Notes under the pieces: generated by a model
The model's database searches: none
What the model was told of the DNA's origin: nothing
The model's input: the letters and a program-made list of their open reading frames with translations, nothing else
Position numbers and translations under genes: made by a program
Assembly: GCA_043767805.1 (NCBI GenBank)
Contig: JAYUGC010000141.1
Coordinates: 1 to 10,586 of the forward strand
Direction: 5' to 3'
DNA from: Pseudomonadota bacterium
Lineage (GTDB): Bacteria > Bdellovibrionota > FAC87 > UBA2466
DNA length: 10,586 nt
In this document: piece by piece, positions 1 to 10,586 of the stretch
Position numbering within the stretch: position 1 is the stretch's first letter
How the letters are laid out: the number at the start of each line of letters is the position of its first letter

Positions 1-962
1 TTGGCGATGTTGCGCTGGTACTCGCCTTGCTGAGCGGCAATCGACTTGCGCGTGTCACCCAACTGATCGGCGAGCCCCTGCATCTTCGCGTTGTACTCTT
101 CCTTCTCCTGCGCGAGCTTCTGCGCGTGCGCCTTTTGGCGTGTTTCCCGCTCGGCCGCCGATAAACGTTCCTTGGCGAGGCCAGCCTCGAAGGCAGCGCG
201 CTCTTTGGCGAGATTACCTTCGTACATGCCCTTTAAGTCACCCATGGCTTTTTCAAATTGCCCGCGCTGCGCTTCGAGCTTGCCCCGGTACTCGGTCTCC
301 TGCCGGGCCGCCGCCGCCTGGGTTCCCGTGAGGCGATCGGACAAACCTTTGAGCTTCGCGTTGTACTGATTCTTTTCCGCTTCCATCTGAGCGAGATGCC
401 CGCGCTCGCGCGCCAGCCTCGCCTCGCCCGACAATTTTTCTTTGGCTAAGCCGGCTTCGAAACGCGCCTGGGCCGCCGCGAGCGACTTGCCGTGCTCGTC
501 CGTCAGGTTCGCCATGGCGCTTTGGTAACCAGCCGCTTCCTCGGCGTAGCGCTCGGCCGCCTTCTCTTTGTCGCGGCGAAGGGCTTCGTTTCTCGCCTTC
601 AGGCCTTCGAGCTGGCCTTGAAACTCCTTCTCGCGGCTTTCGAGCTGCGACGTGAAACCTTCGCGCTGCGTCTCGAGTTCTTCCTGGTGCCGTTTCTGAC
701 GGAGTGCGATGGTCTGACCAAGCGCTTCCTCCTTCTGTTTGGCGAGCTCCTTGGCTTTGGCAAGCGTCCCTTCGATATCGACGAGCTGCTGAGCGTAGCG
801 GGCCTTTTCCGCCTCGATCTTCTGTTTATATGCTTCTTCCCGCTTCAGCTGTTCTTGCGTCGTCAGCTTCTCTTTCTGCAAACTTTCCTGAAAGCGCAAG
901 CGCTCTTCGGTGAGCTTGTTCTCGTGCTGGGCTCTCACCTGACTCAAAGAAAGCTGGTAGGT
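1..962 (-). repeat. Internal ~85-90 aa protein repeats (3 copies visible) in the coiled-coil protein
   Basis: Cores RFQESLQKEKLTTQEQLKREEAYKQKIEAEKARY, RFEAGLAKEKLSGEARLARERGHLAQMEAEKNQYNAKL and AFEAGLAKERLSAAERETRQKAHAQKLAQEKEEYNAKM. The anchor Phe codons start at 893, 461 and 191 (spacings 144 and 90 aa). An exact 14-bp DNA repeat cttcgcgttgtact lies at 84-97 and 354-367, 270 nt apart. Confidence 0.85.
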
Positions 963-1796
963 CTCGCGCTCCTTTTCCAGCTCGGCCAAAACCTGCTGCT
1001 TTTGGGACTCGACCGCCTGAAGCTGCCCCTGAGTTTGCTCGAGCTCCTGAGTGCGTTGGGCGATGACCGTGCGGGTCAGCGCGAGCTGGGCTTCGCTGGA
1101 CTGGTTCTCTTGCTGCAAGGCCTGAACGCGCTGCGCGCTTTCCTTCTGCAGCCTCACAACCTTCAGCTTCATCTCCTCGCGGGTACGCGCGTTCGTCGCC
1201 TTGGCGGTCTCCAGGCGATGGACCGACTCTTGAAGGGTTTTTTGAATCTGAGCGATGCTTTGTCGGTTCTTGCGGATGCTGGCTTCCTTCTCCTGGATGG
1301 AGCTTTGCAGCTGCGCGATGTCCTCGCTCTTTTTACGGATCACGCGGTCGCGGCTCTTGATCTCTTTCTGAGCCAGCTGATTGGTCGCGATGATGTTCTT
1401 GATGATCTTCTGGTAGCGGTTGAGATCTTGCTCCTTCTTCGCCGTTTGCTTGGCCTGATCGAGCAGCCGTTCTTTTTCCTGGCCCGCGTCCCCTTCCAGA
1501 AGCTCCATCTGGGATAGCAATTCGCCATACATCTTTTGTTCGGCTTTCGACTGATGGGCCACGTAGTCGTCCTTCAAGACTTCGTACGCCCGGAGCTGTT
1601 CTTTCAGGGACTCAATCTCTCTCTGCGCTTCCCGCATTCCCGAGCGCTCGACGACTACCGCGGAAGTCGAGCGCAAAGTCGCGACGACGTAGAGCACGAG
1701 ATAGAGAATAGAGAGAACCGTGGCAAGATCGCTGTAGGACGTCCAAAACCCGCCTTCTTCAGCCCGCTTCTTGATTTTGTCGTAGCTCAAGGACAT
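1..1796 (-). CDS. Large single-pass membrane coiled-coil protein with a MotB/ZorB-like N-terminal TM motif (partial, runs off the left edge, >598 aa)
   Basis: Manually translated from the ATG at 1796 with no stop to position 1. N-terminus MSLSYDKIKKRAEEGGFWTSYSDLATVLSILYLVLYVVATLRS shows a basic cytoplasmic tip, a W-x-S-Y-S-D-L motif and a hydrophobic helix. The remainder is E/K/Q/A/R/L-rich helix with no Pro or Cys. Not in the ORF track, presumably because it has no stop in the window. The Leu/Phe-rich + strand ORFs 258-449, 492-1517 and 1536-1802 are its in-register antisense shadow. Confidence 0.92.
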   Translation of the reverse strand, partial: MSLSYDKIKKRAEEGGFWTSYSDLATVLSILYLVLYVVATLRSTSAVVVERSGMREAQREIESLKEQLRAYEVLKDDYVAHQSKAEQKMYGELLSQMELLEGDAGQEKERLLDQAKQTAKKEQDLNRYQKIIKNIIATNQLAQKEIKSRDRVIRKKSEDIAQLQSSIQEKEASIRKNRQSIAQIQKTLQESVHRLETAKATNARTREEMKLKVVRLQKESAQRVQALQQENQSSEAQLALTRTVIAQRTQELEQTQGQLQAVESQKQQVLAELEKERETYQLSLSQVRAQHENKLTEERLRFQESLQKEKLTTQEQLKREEAYKQKIEAEKARYAQQLVDIEGTLAKAKELAKQKEEALGQTIALRQKRHQEELETQREGFTSQLESREKEFQGQLEGLKARNEALRRDKEKAAERYAEEAAGYQSAMANLTDEHGKSLAAAQARFEAGLAKEKLSGEARLARERGHLAQMEAEKNQYNAKLKGLSDRLTGTQAAAARQETEYRGKLEAQRGQFEKAMGDLKGMYEGNLAKERAAFEAGLAKERLSAAERETRQKAHAQKLAQEKEEYNAKMQGLADQLGDTRKSIAAQQGEYQRNIA

Positions 1797-1798
1797 GG

Positions 1799-3037
1799 CT
1801 AAAAGACCCACCCCAGATCGAGTTGAAGCGACGGTAGAATCCCCGAGTGGTTCAAGAACACGCGCGCGGTGGAAGTCTGAGGCAGAAACAGCGCGCCCAG
1901 CCCGGCACTCGCGGTGAGACCGGACGCCCAGGACCAGCGCCAACCCGCGGTCGACGAGAACAGCGGCATGAAGACCGAGTCGTCCACCCCGGCCCGGGAT
2001 AAAGTCAGGGGCCCGGCCCCGGCGGCCATTTGCAACCAAAGCCCTTTGGGAAATATTTTCGGAAAGTACGTTACCGTCCCCAACACACCAACGCCCGACA
2101 CACGGCCCCCGCCCAGCGCCTGACTCGGAAGCAGCAAGGCACCTCCGAGGGTCACACGCGGATAGAGCGCCCGCGCGTAATTGACGGACGGGACCAAGGA
2201 GAGCAGACCCATGGTAAAAATATCGCGGCTGCCGTTTCGGAACGTAAACGTTTCGGCGACCGCCGCCGTATGACGTTCGCTTCCGTCGTCGGAATCGCCT
2301 TTCACGTGGAGAGGAAGTGGCATGGGCTTCACCCAGTCGCCTTCGTCGAAGGAGCCTTTAGCGCTCAAAATTCTGACTTCGGCGCTGAGGGGAAAAGCTT
2401 TGACCACCTCGCCCCAAGCAACGGGCTCTCCGGCGCTGATCACGCCCAAAGTGTCCCCAATCTTCCAGGGCTTGACGAGCGCCTGGCCGATCACGAGCGA
2501 GCTGCTCGAATCTTCGACCCGCAGCACGCGAGCTTTGCCGGGTGCCTCCTTCACCGTATCGCCGGACGCAAAGGAAGTGCCGCTCGACCAGAAGAGATCG
2601 ACGCGAGCGGCGAGGGAATCGGACTTCGCGATCTCTCCGCAGCCCAGCGGTTCCGACTTGCGGTAAAGGCAAATAGTGTCGCCCGGCTTCCATCTCTCTT
2701 TTCCCGCGTGGGTGATGAGAGCGGCTTTGCGATCGGTGACCACGCGGTACACCTGTGCCGTGCCTTCCGCTCGATCGACGAGATCGCCCAAGCGAACGGT
2801 CCCCTCGACGGGGGCGAGCACTTCCACCACGGCGCCTTCCGGAACTTGTTTAATGACCCAGCCGCAAGCGACTTTCACCGGCCCGTGCAAAATGCAGACA
2901 GCGTCCCCCGTGGTCCAGGGAATTCCCGCGGCCGGCGTGATCGTGAATCTTCCGCCATTCATCGTGACGGAAACCACTTCCGCGGCCCAGGCGGGACTGG
3001 CCAAGACCAGGCCCAATATCAGGACACTCCGCCTCAT
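1799..3037 (-). CDS. Outer-membrane protein: signal peptide, three tandem small beta domains (FlgT C-terminal-like) and a C-terminal beta-barrel, 412 aa
   Basis: The ATG at 3037 gives a Sec signal MRRSVLILGLVLASPAWA|AE and is preferred over the ORF-track start at 3094. Three repeats have a 75-aa period. The C-terminal ~140 aa are Gly/aromatic amphipathic strands ending LQLDLGWVF, a BAM-type terminal Phe signature. Confidence 0.85.
   Translation of the reverse strand: MRRSVLILGLVLASPAWAAEVVSVTMNGGRFTITPAAGIPWTTGDAVCILHGPVKVACGWVIKQVPEGAVVEVLAPVEGTVRLGDLVDRAEGTAQVYRVVTDRKAALITHAGKERWKPGDTICLYRKSEPLGCGEIAKSDSLAARVDLFWSSGTSFASGDTVKEAPGKARVLRVEDSSSSLVIGQALVKPWKIGDTLGVISAGEPVAWGEVVKAFPLSAEVRILSAKGSFDEGDWVKPMPLPLHVKGDSDDGSERHTAAVAETFTFRNGSRDIFTMGLLSLVPSVNYARALYPRVTLGGALLLPSQALGGGRVSGVGVLGTVTYFPKIFPKGLWLQMAAGAGPLTLSRAGVDDSVFMPLFSSTAGWRWSWASGLTASAGLGALFLPQTSTARVFLNHSGILPSLQLDLGWVF
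2318..2983 (-). repeat. Three tandem 75-aa protein repeats
   Basis: aa 19-92, 94-167 and 169-240 share A-x-V-x-x-V ... W-x-x-GD-x-[VIL] ... G-x-[VI]-x-K ... A-x-V ... GD-x-V. Repeats 1 and 2 each carry a C-x9-C pair; repeat 3 has lost both Cys. Confidence 0.88.
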
Positions 3038-3044
3038 GTCCAAG

Positions 3045-3072
3045 TTATCGGAATTTCTTGCCGAAAGGTTGA
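3045..3072 (-). promoter_or_regulatory. Candidate sigma-28 (FliA/SigD-type) promoter
   Basis: Minus strand reads TCAA-N16-TCCGATAA versus the consensus TAAA/TCAA-N15(14-16)-GCCGATAA. The -10 element ends 7 nt before the ATG at 3037. Confidence 0.5.
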
Positions 3073-3109
3073 TTCCGCGCGAAGTTCGCCCCACCTGGGA
3101 GCAAGGACT

Positions 3110-5383: not shown

Positions 5384-6441
5384 GCTTTGCTCATCTCCGG
5401 GCGCGCCGTCGGATTGTCGACCGAGAAGCCCGCCGTAATGGCTTTGCCTTCGAGCCGCTGCAGCCAAATCTCCGCGCCGCCGGGCCCCGATCGCAGGGCC
5501 GCAATGGTGTGATAATCGACGAGAGCGAACCCGTCCAGCTCTCCTTCCCCGGGCAAATCGAAGAGCGGCGTTTTGACCGCCGGTCGTACCGACGCATAAC
5601 CGAGGCCGAAGCCTTGGGACGTCGCCGGGTCCATCCAATGCGTGGTCGAAATTTCGGTCGCGGCGGCAAAATCCGCGCGGTACACGCGGATACTTCCCGA
5701 GGCCTTCGCTTCGGCGACGAGAAAGCGATCTTTGGTCACCACCGCCGCGCCCACCACCCGAGAGGTGAGCGTGTCCAAAGGATAGAAATGAGCGCGGTTC
5801 AAAAGGCCGATGCCGGGATCCCACTCGAGCACGCGCGCCCACGGCGTTTTCTCGCCGAGCGCAGTCTCTCCGAAAAGATAGAGCCGCCGGTCGAAGGCGA
5901 AGATCGGACCGAAGGGCTCGGCTTTCAGCGCGGCGGGAAGGCGATCCACACCGCCGAGACCCGAAGCGTGCGGCACCCAGCGAGTCACGGGCTCCCCATC
6001 TTTGCCGTACTTGAACAGGCCGGGCGCTTCTCCGTCGCTAAACCAAAGCGAGCCGTCCGCCATGACGGACAGATGACGGAGCGTAAACGGCACTTCGGGG
6101 CCGGGCGCGCCGAGCTTTTGCCCGTCGGAAATTTTCACCACACCCCGATCGGGAACGAGCTCGAGCTTCACCATTTCGAGATGCCGCTCGGTATCGGTCA
6201 CCGTTTCGACTTCGCTCAAGAATACGAGATTGCGCGACCCGTTCTCTCCCAAAAAGTGAAGGCCGCGGTAGCGAGACGGCGCGCTCGGATCGGGATAGGA
6301 GGCGACTGGATTTTTCTGGCTCTTCGCGTTTGGAACCGTGGCCCCGTCGACGCCCACCGCCCGGCGGCCCTTTTGGAGCTTGAGCGAAGCGCAGCTACAC
6401 AGGACGGCAAGCGCGAATACCGTTCCCGCGCTAACCCGCAT
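5353..6441 (-). CDS. Lipoprotein with a degenerate 'esterase-like activity of phytase' beta-propeller-like domain, 362 aa
   Basis: Lipobox-like MRVSAGTVFALAVLCS|C. Segments DGSLWFSD...PGLFKYGKDGEPVTRWVP...LPAAL, RVLEWDP, HFYPLD, FLVAE, VYRADFAAATEIS and VRPAVKTPLFDL resemble the phytase-like family layout (recognised by eye). Confidence 0.65.
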   Translation of the reverse strand: MRVSAGTVFALAVLCSCASLKLQKGRRAVGVDGATVPNAKSQKNPVASYPDPSAPSRYRGLHFLGENGSRNLVFLSEVETVTDTERHLEMVKLELVPDRGVVKISDGQKLGAPGPEVPFTLRHLSVMADGSLWFSDGEAPGLFKYGKDGEPVTRWVPHASGLGGVDRLPAALKAEPFGPIFAFDRRLYLFGETALGEKTPWARVLEWDPGIGLLNRAHFYPLDTLTSRVVGAAVVTKDRFLVAEAKASGSIRVYRADFAAATEISTTHWMDPATSQGFGLGYASVRPAVKTPLFDLPGEGELDGFALVDYHTIAALRSGPGGAEIWLQRLEGKAITAGFSVDNPTARPEMSKAWVRPLTETL

Positions 6442-6970
6442 TCCGTTTTCCCTTCAGGCTGCGCGCGATCTCTCCGCGGCAATTCGCGCTCACTTCGGAG
6501 ACACGCTCGCGCAGACAGCGCCACGGCGCCGCCCCTTGCGAGGGACAAAGCTTTTCCGTGTCATCGCCACAGACCTTGCGCAAGGTTTTTTCCCTCACGG
6601 CCACTTCCGCCCGGAACGTGCGGCAGTTGAGAGAGACCGCCTTCCCTTTCTCAGTGAGACAACTCCACACTCGCGGATCGGAGGGCTTGAACTGCGAGCA
6701 CAGACGGGCTCTATCGAAAACGCACGGAGCCGCGGCCTGGCGCAAAGTTTCATAGCACCGGCCGTTCAAATCTTTTTCGCCGCGAGCCAGGCAATCCATC
6801 CGCGTGCCGTCTTTCGCCGACCACTTCGCGCAGATTTTTTCCGAGTCCGCGTGGCAGGCCTTTTCCCACGGTGCCACGAACGCGGGTCTCGGGGCGGGCT
6901 TGGGCGGCGGCGCGAAGGAGGCGCAGCTCGTGAACGCAAAGAGACTCAAAAGCGAGAGAGTGAAACGCAT
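6431..6970 (-). CDS. Cysteine-rich repeat lipoprotein (Cys_rich_FGFR/GLG1-like repeats), 179 aa
   Basis: GGAGG SD upstream, lipobox FTS|C16 and a Pro-rich linker. Three repeats of C-x2-D-x3-[IL]-C-x9/12-CL-x10-C (12 Cys, ~6479-6856). Overlaps the next gene by 11 nt. Confidence 0.85.
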   Translation of the reverse strand: MRFTLSLLSLFAFTSCASFAPPPKPAPRPAFVAPWEKACHADSEKICAKWSAKDGTRMDCLARGEKDLNGRCYETLRQAAAPCVFDRARLCSQFKPSDPRVWSCLTEKGKAVSLNCRTFRAEVAVREKTLRKVCGDDTEKLCPSQGAAPWRCLRERVSEVSANCRGEIARSLKGKRNAG

Positions 6971-7010
6971 GGTTCCTCCGGTCAGTCAGCGGATAGGGGG
7001 CTAAAAGGAA

Positions 7011-7016
7011 ATTATA
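7011..7016 (-). promoter_or_regulatory. Candidate -10 element for the lipoprotein operon
   Basis: Perfect TATAAT on the minus strand, 40 nt upstream of the ATG at 6970; no recognisable -35. Confidence 0.4.
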
Positions 7017-7032
7017 GCCTGAGTCGGGTGAT

Positions 7033-7149
7033 TTATCGGGAAGCGGGGCTCACTTCGTGCGGGACGTGGGAAACAGGCTCCATGGCCTGGCTTACGGCCA
7101 AGATGGAGAGCACCAGATCCAGAATCATGACGAAGAGCAACTTCTTCAT
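7033..7149 (-). CDS. Unannotated small protein, 38 aa, with a signal- or TM-like helix
   Basis: MKKLLFVMILDLVLSILAVSQAMEPVSHVPHEVSPASR*. AAGGA SD 6 nt upstream of the ATG, MKK start and hydrophobic core. It fills an otherwise empty gap and is shorter than any ORF in the track. Confidence 0.65.
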   Translation of the reverse strand: MKKLLFVMILDLVLSILAVSQAMEPVSHVPHEVSPASR

Positions 7150-7356
7150 ACGTAGTCCTTGTCGAGCACTTGAAGACGACGGATTTAGCACCCTGCGAAG
7201 TTCGAGGGCAAGAATAAAGTTAAGGAATCTTACTATGAATTATCGAGTTGTTTTCAATAGATAGACCTAATAGTGAAGGAACTTTCACGGAAACCACAAA
7301 ATCTTCACAATTTTTACCTAAACTGAAAGAACCACAATTAGGGAGGATGGGACGTA
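7150..7356. promoter_or_regulatory. AT-rich divergent regulatory region
   Basis: 7211-7340 is about 30% GC by hand count (39/130), clearly below the GC-rich coding background. Contains GTGAA-N6-TTCAC (7273-7288), CACAA repeats and a weak minus-strand TTGCCC-N18-TAAATC (7211-7182). Confidence 0.6.
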
Positions 7357-7611
7357 ATGCGGGAAAGTTGTACGTGTATAGCCCTGCTCATTTGCCTCGG
7401 GTTAGGCCAAACGGCTTTAGCGTTCGAGTTCGACGAGGAAGAAGCCACGGAAGCGTCGAGCTGGACGGAAATCAGCGCACCAAAAAAAGGGGCCACTTGT
7501 TTGGACATGTGCCTTGCGGACGGCGAAGAGCTGTTTGACTGCGAGTACTACTGCATCCAAACCGTGAAGGTCGACCTGAAGGGCCACGGCCAGCGCTGCG
7601 CCCAACGCTAA
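7357..7611 (+). CDS. Small secreted acidic Cys-containing protein, 84 aa
   Basis: GGGAGG SD 10 nt upstream. Signal peptide ending TALA|FE, acidic linker and CLDMC-x9-CEYYC motif. Its stop lies 3 nt from the convergent rnd stop. Confidence 0.7.
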   Translation: MRESCTCIALLICLGLGQTALAFEFDEEEATEASSWTEISAPKKGATCLDMCLADGEELFDCEYYCIQTVKVDLKGHGQRCAQR

Positions 7612-8898: not shown

Positions 8899-10586
8899 AT
8901 GACTGATGAGACCTATGCCCCGCGCCACCGCGTGCGCTTCATAACGGCGGCTTCGCTCTTCGACGGACACGACGCTTCGATTAACATCATGCGTCGCATT
9001 TTGCAGAGCATGGGAGCCGAGGTCATTCACTTGGGCCATAACCGCGGCGCCCAGGAAATCGTCGATGCAGCCCTTCAGGAAGACGCCCAGGCCATCGCCA
9101 TTTCCAGCTATCAGGGCGGTCACGTCGAGTACTTCAAGTACGTGGTCGACCTTCTGAAAGAGGCCAAGGCGTCCCATATCTTGGTCTTTGGGGGCGGGGG
9201 CGGCACCATTACCGCGGCGGAAGCCGTGGAGCTTCAGAAATACGGAGTGGCCCGTCTCTACTCACCCGAAGACGGCCGCAAGATGGGCCTCGGCGGAATT
9301 ATTTCCGACATGGTTCGGCGCGCGGACTACGATCCCCTGTCCCAAGTCGACTGGAAATGCCTGGAGGATCGAGGCTCACTCCGCCGCATGGCCAATGCCC
9401 TCACCTGCGTCGAGCTGGGAGACGGCGCTCTGAAGGGGCCCTACGCTTCCCACCTCAAAGCCTTTGAGGCCATGAAGACGGCTGCCGCCGTGACCGGCAA
9501 AGCGAACCGGGATGCTCACCGCACGACCGTGGTGGGACTCACGGGAACGGGGGGCGCCGGAAAATCGAGTCTCACCGACGAGCTGGCGCTTCGTTTTTTG
9601 CACCGCTTTCCGAAGGCGCGTATCGCCATCGTGGCCACCGATCCAACGAGAAAGAAAACGGGCGGCGCCCTTTTGGGCGATCGCTTGCGCATCAATAGTC
9701 TTAAGAACCCACGCCTCTTCATGCGCTCGCTCGCGACTCGCGAAGCCAATCTCTCTTTGAGCCGGGCCACGCAAGAAGCCGTCGATTGTCTCGCGGCGGA
9801 AGGCTACGATTGGGTTTTGGTCGAGACCGGCGGCATCGGCCAGGCCGACACTTCCATCGTCGATCTCGTCGACATCCGCGTTTACGTCATGACGAGCGAG
9901 TTCGGGGCGCCCACCCAGTTAGAGAAGATTAACATGCTCGATTACGCGGATCTCGTCGTCCTGAACAAGTTCGACAAGGGCGGCTCCCTCGACGCGCTTA
10001 CCGACGTGCGCCGCCAGCTCCGCCGCAATCACCGCGAGCTCGAAAAGCTTCCGTCCGATCGCTACCCGGTTTTTGGATCCATCGCCTCCCGCTTCGCCGA
10101 TCCCGGAGTCGACGCCATCCTGGAACACCTCATCGGCGTGCGCGATAAGCCAAAGAAACTTCAGCTTCTCGACAAGCCCTTCGAGCTGGATAGTCCCATG
10201 GGCACCACCATCGTGCCGCGCACGCGGGTGCAGTACCTTTCGGAAATCACGGAAACGGTGCGCGAGTACCACAGCGGAACGGCAGCCGCGGTCAAGACGG
10301 TGGCCCGCTGGGAAGCCGCTCAAAATTTGAAAGAGGCGCTTTCCGGCGACGCAAAGAATCAAGTCGAGCAGCTCGAGCAGGAAGCCGAGAAAGCTCTCGA
10401 TCCCGAGAGCGCGAAGCTTCTCGCCGAGTGGCCGGAAATCGAAAAGCGGTACCGGCAAGAAAATTACACCTACGACGTCCGAGACAAGAAAGTGTCGTTT
10501 CCGCTCTATAAGACGAGCCTCTCGCAAAATAAGATTCCGCGCATTTCTCTGCCCCGTTTTCACTCTAAAGCCGATCTCTTGAGCTT
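8899..10586 (+). CDS. icmF: Fused isobutyryl-CoA mutase/G-protein chaperone IcmF (partial, runs off the right edge)
   Basis: Manual translation: MTDETYAPRHRVRFITAASLFDGHDASINIMRRILQSMGAEVIHLGHNR (B12-binding domain); MeaB-like GTPase with GLTGTGGAGKSSLTDEL, DPTRKKTGGALLGDRLRIN, VETGGIGQ, SEFGAPTQLEKINMLDYAD and NKFDK; linker YTYDVRDK...SLSQNKIPRISLP. The domain order is diagnostic of IcmF. Not in the ORF track. Confidence 0.95.
   Translation, partial: MTDETYAPRHRVRFITAASLFDGHDASINIMRRILQSMGAEVIHLGHNRGAQEIVDAALQEDAQAIAISSYQGGHVEYFKYVVDLLKEAKASHILVFGGGGGTITAAEAVELQKYGVARLYSPEDGRKMGLGGIISDMVRRADYDPLSQVDWKCLEDRGSLRRMANALTCVELGDGALKGPYASHLKAFEAMKTAAAVTGKANRDAHRTTVVGLTGTGGAGKSSLTDELALRFLHRFPKARIAIVATDPTRKKTGGALLGDRLRINSLKNPRLFMRSLATREANLSLSRATQEAVDCLAAEGYDWVLVETGGIGQADTSIVDLVDIRVYVMTSEFGAPTQLEKINMLDYADLVVLNKFDKGGSLDALTDVRRQLRRNHRELEKLPSDRYPVFGSIASRFADPGVDAILEHLIGVRDKPKKLQLLDKPFELDSPMGTTIVPRTRVQYLSEITETVREYHSGTAAAVKTVARWEAAQNLKEALSGDAKNQVEQLEQEAEKALDPESAKLLAEWPEIEKRYRQENYTYDVRDKKVSFPLYKTSLSQNKIPRISLPRFHSKADLLS

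Follow-up and report, generated by a model that had tools for sequence, protein, structure and literature searches.

What is encoded at the edge of the analysed window, a stretch of 10,586 nucleotides from a member of the Bdellovibrionota, where an open reading frame (ORF) with a short motor-like signature continues into a very long proline-free region and then leaves the contig? The ORF (3..1796, minus strand) starts with an ATG at 1796 and is open at its 3' end, running off the contig at base 3, so that the window holds its first 598 codons. With a probability of about 0.75, we read it as the first three quarters of a B subunit of roughly 800 amino acids belonging to a ZorAB-type, ion-driven 5:2 membrane motor, as predicted from sequence and profile comparisons. 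The elements on which a preliminary description had built its case, i.e., the motif FWTSYSDL (residues 17-24) with Asp23, a single transmembrane (TM) helix and the absence of any Pro, were all confirmed in the 598-codon frame.

The cytoplasmic N-terminus (residues 1-22; 1731..1796, minus strand) carries the motif x-[FL]-x-Y-x-K, whose Tyr5 is kept in at least 90% of the orthologues, plus W18-T-S-Y-S. It is followed by Asp23 (codon 1728..1730, minus strand), which aligns with Asp26, the proton-carrying residue of E. coli ZorB, and by the only TM helix, a hydrophobic stretch covering residues 24-41 (1674..1727, minus strand). Asp23 is invariant among the 53 aligned orthologues (53/53), present in all 56 ORFs upstream of an A gene that have a complete N-terminus, and also found in 111 of the 120 database homologues listed. 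In profile searches against the PDB, the N-terminal part matched the ZorB chains 8qyd_F (E 5.9e-5) and 8vvn_B (E 0.0011) best, followed by MotB 6ysl (E 0.097). The NCBIfam ZorB1 model likewise recognized it with E 1.7e-7, yet at 31 bits against a cut-off of 400, and Pfam MotB_plug, aligned with positions 10-43, reached 16.6 bits and thus stayed under its 24-bit cut-off. In the match lists obtained, the protein resembles ZorB and MotB rather than TolR or ExbD. Both the conservation of Asp23 and the profile comparison had been suggested as checks on the initial MotB/ZorB-type assignment, which is supported by either of them.

Beyond the membrane, a putative helical, Pro-free stalk would separate the TM helix from a peptidoglycan-binding domain. 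Not a single Pro occurs across all 598 residues, and this is a trait of the family, as 51 of 55 complete orthologues have a stalk without Pro; residues 51-598 consist to 69% of A, E, K, L, Q and R, and to 35% of D, E, K and R. A heptad scan found a steady register only for the membrane-proximal stalk (approximately residues 45-215; 1152..1664, minus strand), which is conserved family-wide and contains the invariant residues Y71, Y90, L99 and L100 as well as an LN-YQ block. The distal stalk (residues 216-598; 3..1151, minus strand), in contrast, shows frequent register shifts and degenerate repeats of about 60-90 aa (F-E-x-x-L-x-K-E-K-L-S...), and a BLASTP self-comparison for internal protein repeats returned none at E 1e-3. 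It is also this distal part in which the length variation between species is located: the stalk comprises about 560 aa here, 266-821 aa in close orthologues and 266 to about 1,500 residues overall, and can therefore not serve as a fixed ruler. Because of the register shifts after about residue 215 and the 20 Gly within residues 340-598, the unbroken rod of about 80 nm considered in the preliminary description is doubtful. With the cell wall about 9 nm away, a stalk of this length exceeds what a simple perpendicular span would require.

The remainder of the gene was located by orthologue alignment and profile searches at the end of another contig of the same genome, contig C9, where about 206 codons are found on the minus strand (L018:18016-18630). 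Residues 1-498 of an orthologue from the same genus align to the window contig (C141) and residues 501-703 to the end of C9. Moreover, the profiles of the peptidoglycan-binding domain and of the A subunit each gave one match in this genome, both on C9. We infer from these alignments that the B gene continues from C141 to C9; the two contig ends share no overlap, and neither DNA repeats nor an overlap that would explain the contig break were found. Contigs of three other runs reach 610-4331 nt beyond base 1 of the window.

The piece on C9 matches the PADLOC ZorB1 model with E 4.7e-24 (full-length orthologues: 4.2e-27 and 6.4e-30), a C-terminal profile matches the type II ZorB 8vvi_A with E 7e-6, and Pfam OmpA scored 16.7 bits, under its cut-off of 27.2. 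In all 60 C-terminal domains compared, N127, L130, S131, R134, C185 and C190 are invariant (motif N-x-x-L-S-x-x-R and two Cys), and the spacing of the motif residues equals that of the peptidoglycan-binding residues Y151/N152/L155/R159 of EcZorB. The OmpA-like C-terminus foreseen for a genuine B subunit is hence present on C9, in the form of a ZorB-like, OmpA-type domain predicted to bind peptidoglycan.

Directly downstream of B, again on C9, lies a gene of 447 aa (L018:16661-18004) with a ZorA/ExbB/TolQ fold. The A subunit that seemed to be lacking at this locus therefore exists, and the proposed search for a MotA/ExbB/ZorA-like gene beyond the contig end led to it. A profile of this protein detected ZorA chains in the PDB with E 6.5e-8, and the PADLOC and NCBIfam ZorA models matched it with E 1e-5 to 1e-9, the latter at 17-37 bits vs. 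cut-offs of 100-750; Pfam MotA_ExbB (PF01618) gave 11.6 bits vs. a cut-off of 22.9, and some of the homologues carry PF28082 (ZorA-like_t1, Pfam 38.1). The AF2 model (pLDDT 82.5) has three TM helices, and its comparison with known structures (VIA-align) yielded ZorA 8qyd_A with Z 12.1 and an rmsd of 3.3 Å over 205 residues; the best 23 structural matches are all ZorA, TolQ or ExbB, with Z values of about 10-10.7 for TolQ and ExbB. Thr188 and Ser228 align with the ion filter of ZorA, and at least 90% of 45 sequences retain them. Most orthologues measure about 300-330 aa, and a tail of about 110 aa is present in 10 of the 120 homologues listed. Eight canonical MotA/ExbB-family genes are encoded elsewhere in this genome.

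Upstream of B, the situation is as initially described. The neighbouring gene (1799..3094, minus strand; 431 aa) stops 2 nt short of the start codon of B and was not recognized as MotA, ExbB or ZorA by Pfam, NCBIfam or PADLOC, so that it is not an A subunit; its product has a signal-peptide-like N-terminus and the C-terminal residues ...GWVF and appears outer-membrane-like. We rejected it as a conserved partner, as a match was found in only 1 of 86 loci, in a relative from the same genus. Scanning the window against Rfam and for tRNAs gave nothing, and a search for promoters and terminators found terminator-like sites at no higher frequency than in shuffled sequences.

B and A form the core of a gene set that is common in predatory Bdellovibrio-like bacteria and is unstudied; our literature searches found no paper on this B-A family. 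Of 80 loci, two are truncated by contig ends; in all 78 that could be assessed, B directly precedes A. The two genes co-occur in 116 genomes and, counted singly, are found in 120 and 124 of 301; the cassette is present in 120 of these 301 genomes (about 40% of those sampled in the phylum) and single-copy where checked. In 58 of the 80 loci A is followed by a third gene, which encodes a protein with FHA, coiled-coil and TM parts and often provides a long cytoplasmic coiled coil, while a sister clade has a cNMP-binding protein in its place. For the C-terminal domain of the third protein, neither a Pfam family nor a credible PDB sequence match was obtained. The present genome has no third gene, and a tblastn search for a homologue elsewhere in it returned only unrelated FHA-domain proteins; A itself carries a short helical tail. 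The earlier notion of an inverted Zorya layout is thus only half right, a long cytoplasmic coiled coil often being supplied by the third gene.

By homology to ZorAB and MotAB, five A chains would form a ring enclosing two B chains, the stalks and peptidoglycan-binding domains would fix the B dimer to the cell wall, and proton flow via the Asp would rotate the A ring around it. The gene neighbourhood further suggests that the cytoplasmic face of A communicates with a signalling partner, which could be the FHA/coiled-coil/TM protein in most lineages and the cNMP-binding protein in the sister clade, a role that the short tail of A might take over in this genome. As to its role, we would guess at an apparatus tethered to the wall that serves predatory bacteria in envelope surveillance or signalling; it would be a Zorya relative housed on the chromosome rather than a motor for motility or invasion. 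In a published Tn-seq table of Bdellovibrio bacteriovorus, the three genes all tolerate insertions without effect on predation, with scores of 1.5-2.0 like those of neutral neighbours, whereas predation-defective genes are flagged at W < 0.1; the role in motility or prey invasion considered at the outset is consequently not favoured. Going one step further, the family could be a so far unrecognized branch of 5:2 motors, sister to or forerunner of Zorya on the chromosome, in which the wall anchor sits at the tip of a periplasmic cable whose length, between 266 and about 1,500 residues, differs by species and which acts as tether or tension sensor and gates a proton-driven rotor, which in turn is read by FHA (phospho-threonine) or cyclic-nucleotide sensors. 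Such a trans-envelope mechanosensory device of predators is a tentative proposal, to which we would assign clearly less than even odds.

An alternative option could be a new anti-phage system of Zorya type, in whose core stalked ZorB and tail-less ZorA sense phage damage to the envelope and in which the third gene is effector or relay. Both subunits have their closest known relatives among Zorya proteins, and several further traits would fit a defence locus: the third gene is exchangeable, the distribution is patchy down to the window's own family (8 of 33 genomes), the neighbourhoods differ by lineage, with any gene besides the cassette being common to at most 8 of 80 loci, and laboratory growth and predation are unaffected by loss, as for defence genes. 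However, one other family carries the cassette in 31 of 36 genomes, and in one genus it occupies a single syntenic site between SMC and FtsY in all three genomes. Neither a nuclease nor any other known effector was found, and PADLOC detected nothing beyond generic RNase D matches in the flanks. Searches of this genome for ZorC and ZorE came back empty, that for ZorC being weak as its control was silent, and the search for ZorD gave only generic, sub-cut-off matches of helicase type on other contigs. Together with the absent long ZorA tail and the reversed gene order, this makes an anti-phage function unlikely in our view. Less probable still is a passive, wall-tethered periplasmic scaffold in which the Asp and the A-like gene are relics and no ion-driven rotation takes place. 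The long, repetitive and length-variable stalk, the lack of a Tn-seq phenotype and the sub-cut-off scores for motor families would be in line with it, but the invariant Asp, the conserved ion-filter-aligned residues of A and the strict adjacency of B and A argue against it. A stator for motility, gliding or prey invasion, as first proposed, is the least credible option, since its basis in the 5:2 class membership, the motile predatory hosts and the MCP and CheW genes near the cassette in one genus is opposed by the missing MotA-type match of A with its three TM helices and ZorA/ExbB-like fold, by the canonical MotA/ExbB-family genes elsewhere in the genome and by the Tn-seq scores.

To our knowledge, descriptions of ZorAB have until now been confined to its role as a phage-defence sensor. 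B and A represent a conserved ZorAB relative, apparently without nuclease partners, with the stalk on B, a tail-less A and a signalling third gene, and suggest a wider, possibly housekeeping use of the Zorya motor type. The stalk lengths within the family form a natural series, with which the control of a 5:2 motor by wall anchoring could be tested. Furthermore, the ZorB/MotB-type assignment corrects the misleading database name "microtubule-binding protein", which Bdellovibrio members do carry at NCBI, as the preliminary description had suggested, and offers a testable hypothesis for three B. bacteriovorus genes lacking an assigned function.

Among the known 5:2 systems, GldL5M2/PorL5M2 of type IX secretion and gliding reportedly also has an in-ring subunit with a long periplasmic extension, as in B; GldM, however, has no peptidoglycan-binding domain, and GldL and GldM are absent from both the sequence and the fold match lists. 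In TolQ-TolR-TolA and ExbB-ExbD-TonB, too, a 5:2 motor of the inner membrane is linked with a long helical element in the periplasm, and TolQ and ExbB match the fold of A. In these systems that element is a protein of its own outside the ring (TolA or TonB), whereas here the stalk lies within B, with no TolA or TonB gene adjoining B-A; moreover, TolR and ExbD lack the OmpA-type domain in which B ends. In MotA5B2 and PomA5B2, the Asp of the B subunit also opens one TM helix and the periplasmic part also ends OmpA-like, and a wall-anchored stator with a rotating A ring would be a further likeness by inference. In contrast to A, however, MotA contains four TM helices and is recognized by PF01618, and the linker of MotB comprises tens of residues where the stalk of B has hundreds. 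MotAB and its homologues are encoded with the A gene in front of the B gene (PMC12505986).

Both B and A have their best matches, in sequence and fold, in Zorya ZorA5B2 (E. coli 8QYD, Shewanella 8VVN, Sulfuricurvum 8VVI). We nevertheless rejected the assignment to a Zorya system proper: the order of the genes is B then A, the reverse of that in Zorya, the 70-nm tail of ZorA is absent from A, the NCBIfam ZorA and ZorB scores are sub-cut-off, and counterparts of ZorC, ZorD and ZorE were not found beside B-A. Within one genus, moreover, the cassette has a syntenic context of housekeeping genes. The ZorB of Zorya has no linker between its TM helix and its peptidoglycan-binding domain, whereas a stalk is interposed here. 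Common to Zorya and B-A are, in the B subunit, a TM helix bearing the Asp and an OmpA-type domain that could form a disulfide and has an identical peptidoglycan-binding motif and, in the A subunit, the three-TM fold and residues aligned with the Thr/Ser ion filter of ZorA.

At the left edge of the window lies the gene of a B subunit of the ZorB type with a long stalk; the gene after it, on another contig, encodes the ZorA-type partner. The genome assembly comprises 204 contigs, and the window represents the first 10,586 bases of C141 (JAYUGC010000141.1), where the B-subunit ORF starts at ATG 1796 on the minus strand and, after 598 residues, is cut at base 3 by the contig end. The features read in the preliminary description were confirmed at their coordinates, i.e., FWTSYSDL at residues 17–24 with the Asp23 codon at 1728–1730, the adjoining hydrophobic stretch (residues 24–41) and the charged, Pro-free remainder (no proline over the whole length of 598; 69% of residues 51–598 are A, E, K, L, Q or R). 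In a relative of the same genus, the B orthologue is likewise divided over two contigs; in its C-terminal piece, residues 1–498 correspond to C141 1463..3 (68.7% identity) and residues 501–703 to the last 612 nt of contig C9 of the window's genome (85.8% identity), and the gene following B aligns to C9 18004..16664. On the minus strand of C9 (locus L018), a 5'-open ORF of 204 aa at the contig end would be the C-terminal piece of B (18016–18630), followed directly by the 447-aa ORF of the A subunit (16661–18004), and profiles of both gave one match each in this genome, both on C9. C141 and C9 share no sequence at their ends, and a search for DNA repeats gave no explanation for the break. In Logan, contigs of three further runs from a single sediment-metagenome study, one of which may be this assembly's own source and hence not independent, are identical over window 1–1796 and reach beyond window base 1 by 610 to 4,331 nt, which makes the break specific to this assembly. 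From these alignments we infer that the B gene would run on from C141 onto C9, with about 804 residues in total. The preliminary description was right that no A subunit lies upstream, but the partner is not missing, as it follows downstream on C9; the leftward extension it had proposed would lead to both a ZorB-like C-terminal domain and a ZorA-like gene.

Assignment of the N-terminus relies on profile matches. Pfam MotB_plug stayed below its cut-off of 24 bits for the window protein (E 0.006, 16.6 bits) and for the best orthologue (22.6 bits), and NCBIfam ZorB1 matched the window protein with E 1.7e-7. A profile of 53 N-termini retrieved E. coli ZorB (8qyd_F) first (E 5.9e-5), followed by two more ZorB chains and only after these by MotB (E 0.097), in line with the MotB/ZorB type suggested initially. 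The Asp of the family aligns opposite ZorB Asp26, and Asp23, for which a conservation check had been advised, proved invariant (53/53 aligned sequences). Among 67 upstream ORFs with the B C-terminal signature, the motif occurs in 56/56 N-terminally complete ones, the remaining 11 being shortened by a contig edge or N-run (8) or an upstream stop (3).

Among the 120 best homologues, six NCBI records of B. bacteriovorus (P0136–P0141; e.g., WP_157865652.1, AFY00849.1) start with MGLSTIF..., within the TM helix, and therefore lack the Asp motif. In a further genome (G147, L107:322–1914, plus strand), the open frame extends upstream, reading MSFNY...FWTSYSDLFLGLSTIF. The start codon of the six records was probably called 26 codons too late, which would mask the MotB/ZorB nature of the protein.

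The OmpA-like C-terminus sought from the outset was found on C9, where the PADLOC ZorB1 model PDLC00609 matched the B piece with E 4.7e-24; full-length orthologues reached 4.2e-27 and 6.4e-30 with PADLOC ZorB1, and a profile of 60 B C-termini retrieved type II ZorB (8vvi_A, E 7e-6). Within this peptidoglycan-binding domain, N127, L130, S131, R134, C185 and C190 are invariant (60 sequences). The spacing Y-N-x-x-L-x-x-x-R equals that of Y151/N152/L155/R159 in E. coli ZorB, as mapped by motif and not by alignment; according to an excerpt of PMC11946911, mutation of these residues lowered peptidoglycan binding and abolished defence, and the ZorB domain is disulfide-bonded. Against 1.84 billion representative proteins, the domain profile gave 237 matches at E ≤ 1e-30, and in every one of the best 150 the domain is C-terminal.

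The 447-aa protein is a ZorA-type A subunit. No Pfam family exceeded its cut-off (MotA_ExbB 11.6 bits vs. 22.9); the TM2–TM3 region matched PADLOC and NCBIfam ZorA models with E 1e-5 to 1e-9, a 45-sequence A profile matched ZorA chains with E 6.5e-8, and some homologues carry PF28082 (ZorA-like_t1, Pfam 38.1). In the AF2 model (mean pLDDT 82.5, pTM 0.62), one long helix at the N-terminus is combined with a cytoplasmic domain, also helical, and with two more TM helices. Foldseek placed ZorA on top (E 6.6e-3, probability 1.0), followed by ExbB and TolQ, none reaching E 0.001, and VIA-align superimposed 205 residues on 8qyd_A (Z 12.1, rmsd 3.3 Å), with exclusively ZorA, TolQ or ExbB in the top 23 rows. 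As helical bundles may reach such Z values by chance, the assignment leans to a large extent on the sequence matches. Thr147/Ser184 of ZorA, the proposed ion filter, correspond in the HMM alignment to Thr188/Ser228 of A, both conserved in at least 90% of A sequences.

Scanning a single genome from each species yielded 225 loci, and 80 of them were retained. Clustering of their ORFs revealed A in 80, B immediately upstream in 78 (the two others end at a contig edge) and a third gene downstream in 58, and no further gene was common to more than eight loci. In the third protein, an FHA domain at the N-terminus (E 8e-16) is joined by a long coiled coil and a single TM helix, and for its C-terminal domain (~160 aa) no known relative was found. 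This protein is not encoded beside A in the window's genome, its same-genus relative and one further genome (G008), and two queries did not find it elsewhere in the window's genome. In a more distant sister clade the order B then A is retained, with B of 926 aa (L104:9497–12277, minus) and 1,758 aa (L105:9436–14712, minus) followed by A and, as third gene at both loci read, one for a cNMP-binding protein; the larger B contains tandem Gly-rich repeats of ~20 aa by the dozen (G-K-L-A-G-M-G-K-E-I-G-G-L-K type), as well as repeats of ~57 aa.

At a presence threshold of E ≤ 1e-10, 120 genomes of a 301-genome phylum sample contain A, 124 the B peptidoglycan-binding domain and 116 both. The four A-only genomes comprise three weak matches in long ORFs and one in which B ends at a contig edge (G009); all eight B-domain-only genomes are weak matches. 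Presence is uneven by family (31/36 in f8, 36/67 in f10, 8/33 in the window's own family), and the locus records cover Bdellovibrionota lineages and some MAGs labeled Gammaproteobacteria (labels as recorded). Three weak A-profile matches in the window's family (G004:C434, G014:C323 and G020:C174, L106:615–2579; E 1e-14 to 1e-21) sit inside ORFs of 485–655 aa, which may be tailed ZorA of ordinary Zorya systems.

The A subunit ends in a "mini tail" (L018:16661–17100, minus; residues about 300–447) of a Pro/Ala-rich linker and a 60-aa hairpin; in the AF2 model, the Pro/Ala-rich residues 280–384 are of low confidence and residues 385–446 form a confident helical hairpin. Present in 10 of the 120 homologues listed, mostly from loci without the FHA gene, it showed no resemblance to the third gene. 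On the other side of B, 2 nt separate the stop codon of the upstream gene (1799–3094, minus) from the B start codon. Its 431-aa product begins like a signal peptide, contains three to four internal repeats of ~85 aa and ends in ...GWVF. Conservation of this protein is limited to the same-genus relative, and its atlas neighbours include Bdellovibrionota clusters with OMP_b-brl in 13–20% of members. In this genome, which lacks the FHA gene, it may represent an outer-membrane partner specific to the lineage.

Elsewhere in the window, the sole low-GC stretch (7001–7500, GC 0.476) is flanked by a small Cys-rich ORF (7357–7611, plus) and the gene of a secreted protein with Cys-rich repeats (6431–6970, minus; Pfam Cys_rich_FGFR, E 8e-8). 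An ORF that leaves the window end (8899–10584, plus) joins a B12-binding domain to a MeaB-type GTPase, as found in the N-terminal portion of IcmF-like fused mutases.

In 55 complete close orthologues, the stalk between TM helix and peptidoglycan-binding domain measures 266–821 aa (median 349) and is Pro-free in 51. Its first ~170 residues are well conserved with the heptad register kept, and farther out the stalk of the window protein contains frequent register shifts and 20 Gly. With a helix rise of about 0.15 nm per residue, even the shortest stalk would span about 40 nm. The distance from inner membrane to wall in E. coli is about 9 nm (PMC11946911, excerpt), so that the stalk cannot span this gap as a straight strut perpendicular to the membrane; it may rather lie along the periplasm, fold back or serve as slack tether.

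Many Bdellovibrio B records are named "microtubule-binding protein" at NCBI, as stated in the preliminary description, and JGI uses "OmpA-like peptidoglycan-associated protein". Our literature searches found no paper on the stalked B family, nor is it mentioned in the excerpts of two Zorya structure papers and a MotAB survey (PMC12505986). Tn-seq fitness values for four conditions are available from supplementary file 5 of Duncan et al. (2019; PMC6561027), where EP01_RS15535 (microtubule-binding protein; W 1.88/1.88/1.86/1.75), EP01_RS15540 (hypothetical protein; 1.74/1.98/1.80/1.93) and EP01_RS15545 (large Ala/Glu-rich protein; 1.81/1.99/1.51/1.67) are consecutive. We equate them with B, A and the third gene by product name and synteny, the table order SMC ... 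acetyltransferase, B, A, third gene ... FtsY being that also seen in a genus with complete genomes (see below). Most neighbours show W of 1.2–2.2, the defect threshold is W < 0.1 (PMC6561027), and essential genes, e.g., SMC, are given as ND. Provided that this equation holds, axenic growth does not require the three genes, and they are neutral in predation on E. coli and V. cholerae. By homology, the stalked B–A pair would operate as a motor, and as biological role we favour a wall-tethered device for envelope surveillance or signalling.

The main rival explanation takes the pair, with its matches to ZorA and ZorB, for a new Zorya-like defence system. Both A and B score far under the NCBIfam Zorya cut-offs, and a search for ZorC, ZorD and ZorE (ZorC control silent) found none in flanks or genome. 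The flanks contain housekeeping genes (exonuclease III, CutA, RNase D, lytic transglycosylase), and in a genus with complete genomes the cassette is placed between SMC on one side and MCP/CheW/FtsY on the other (3/3 genomes). By the defining features of Zorya, the B–A cassette is not Zorya: the long tail of ZorA is absent from A here, and B precedes A, in contrast to MotAB-type systems, where B comes after A (PMC12505986, excerpt). Stalked B and A together form an architecturally new variant within a known class of motors.
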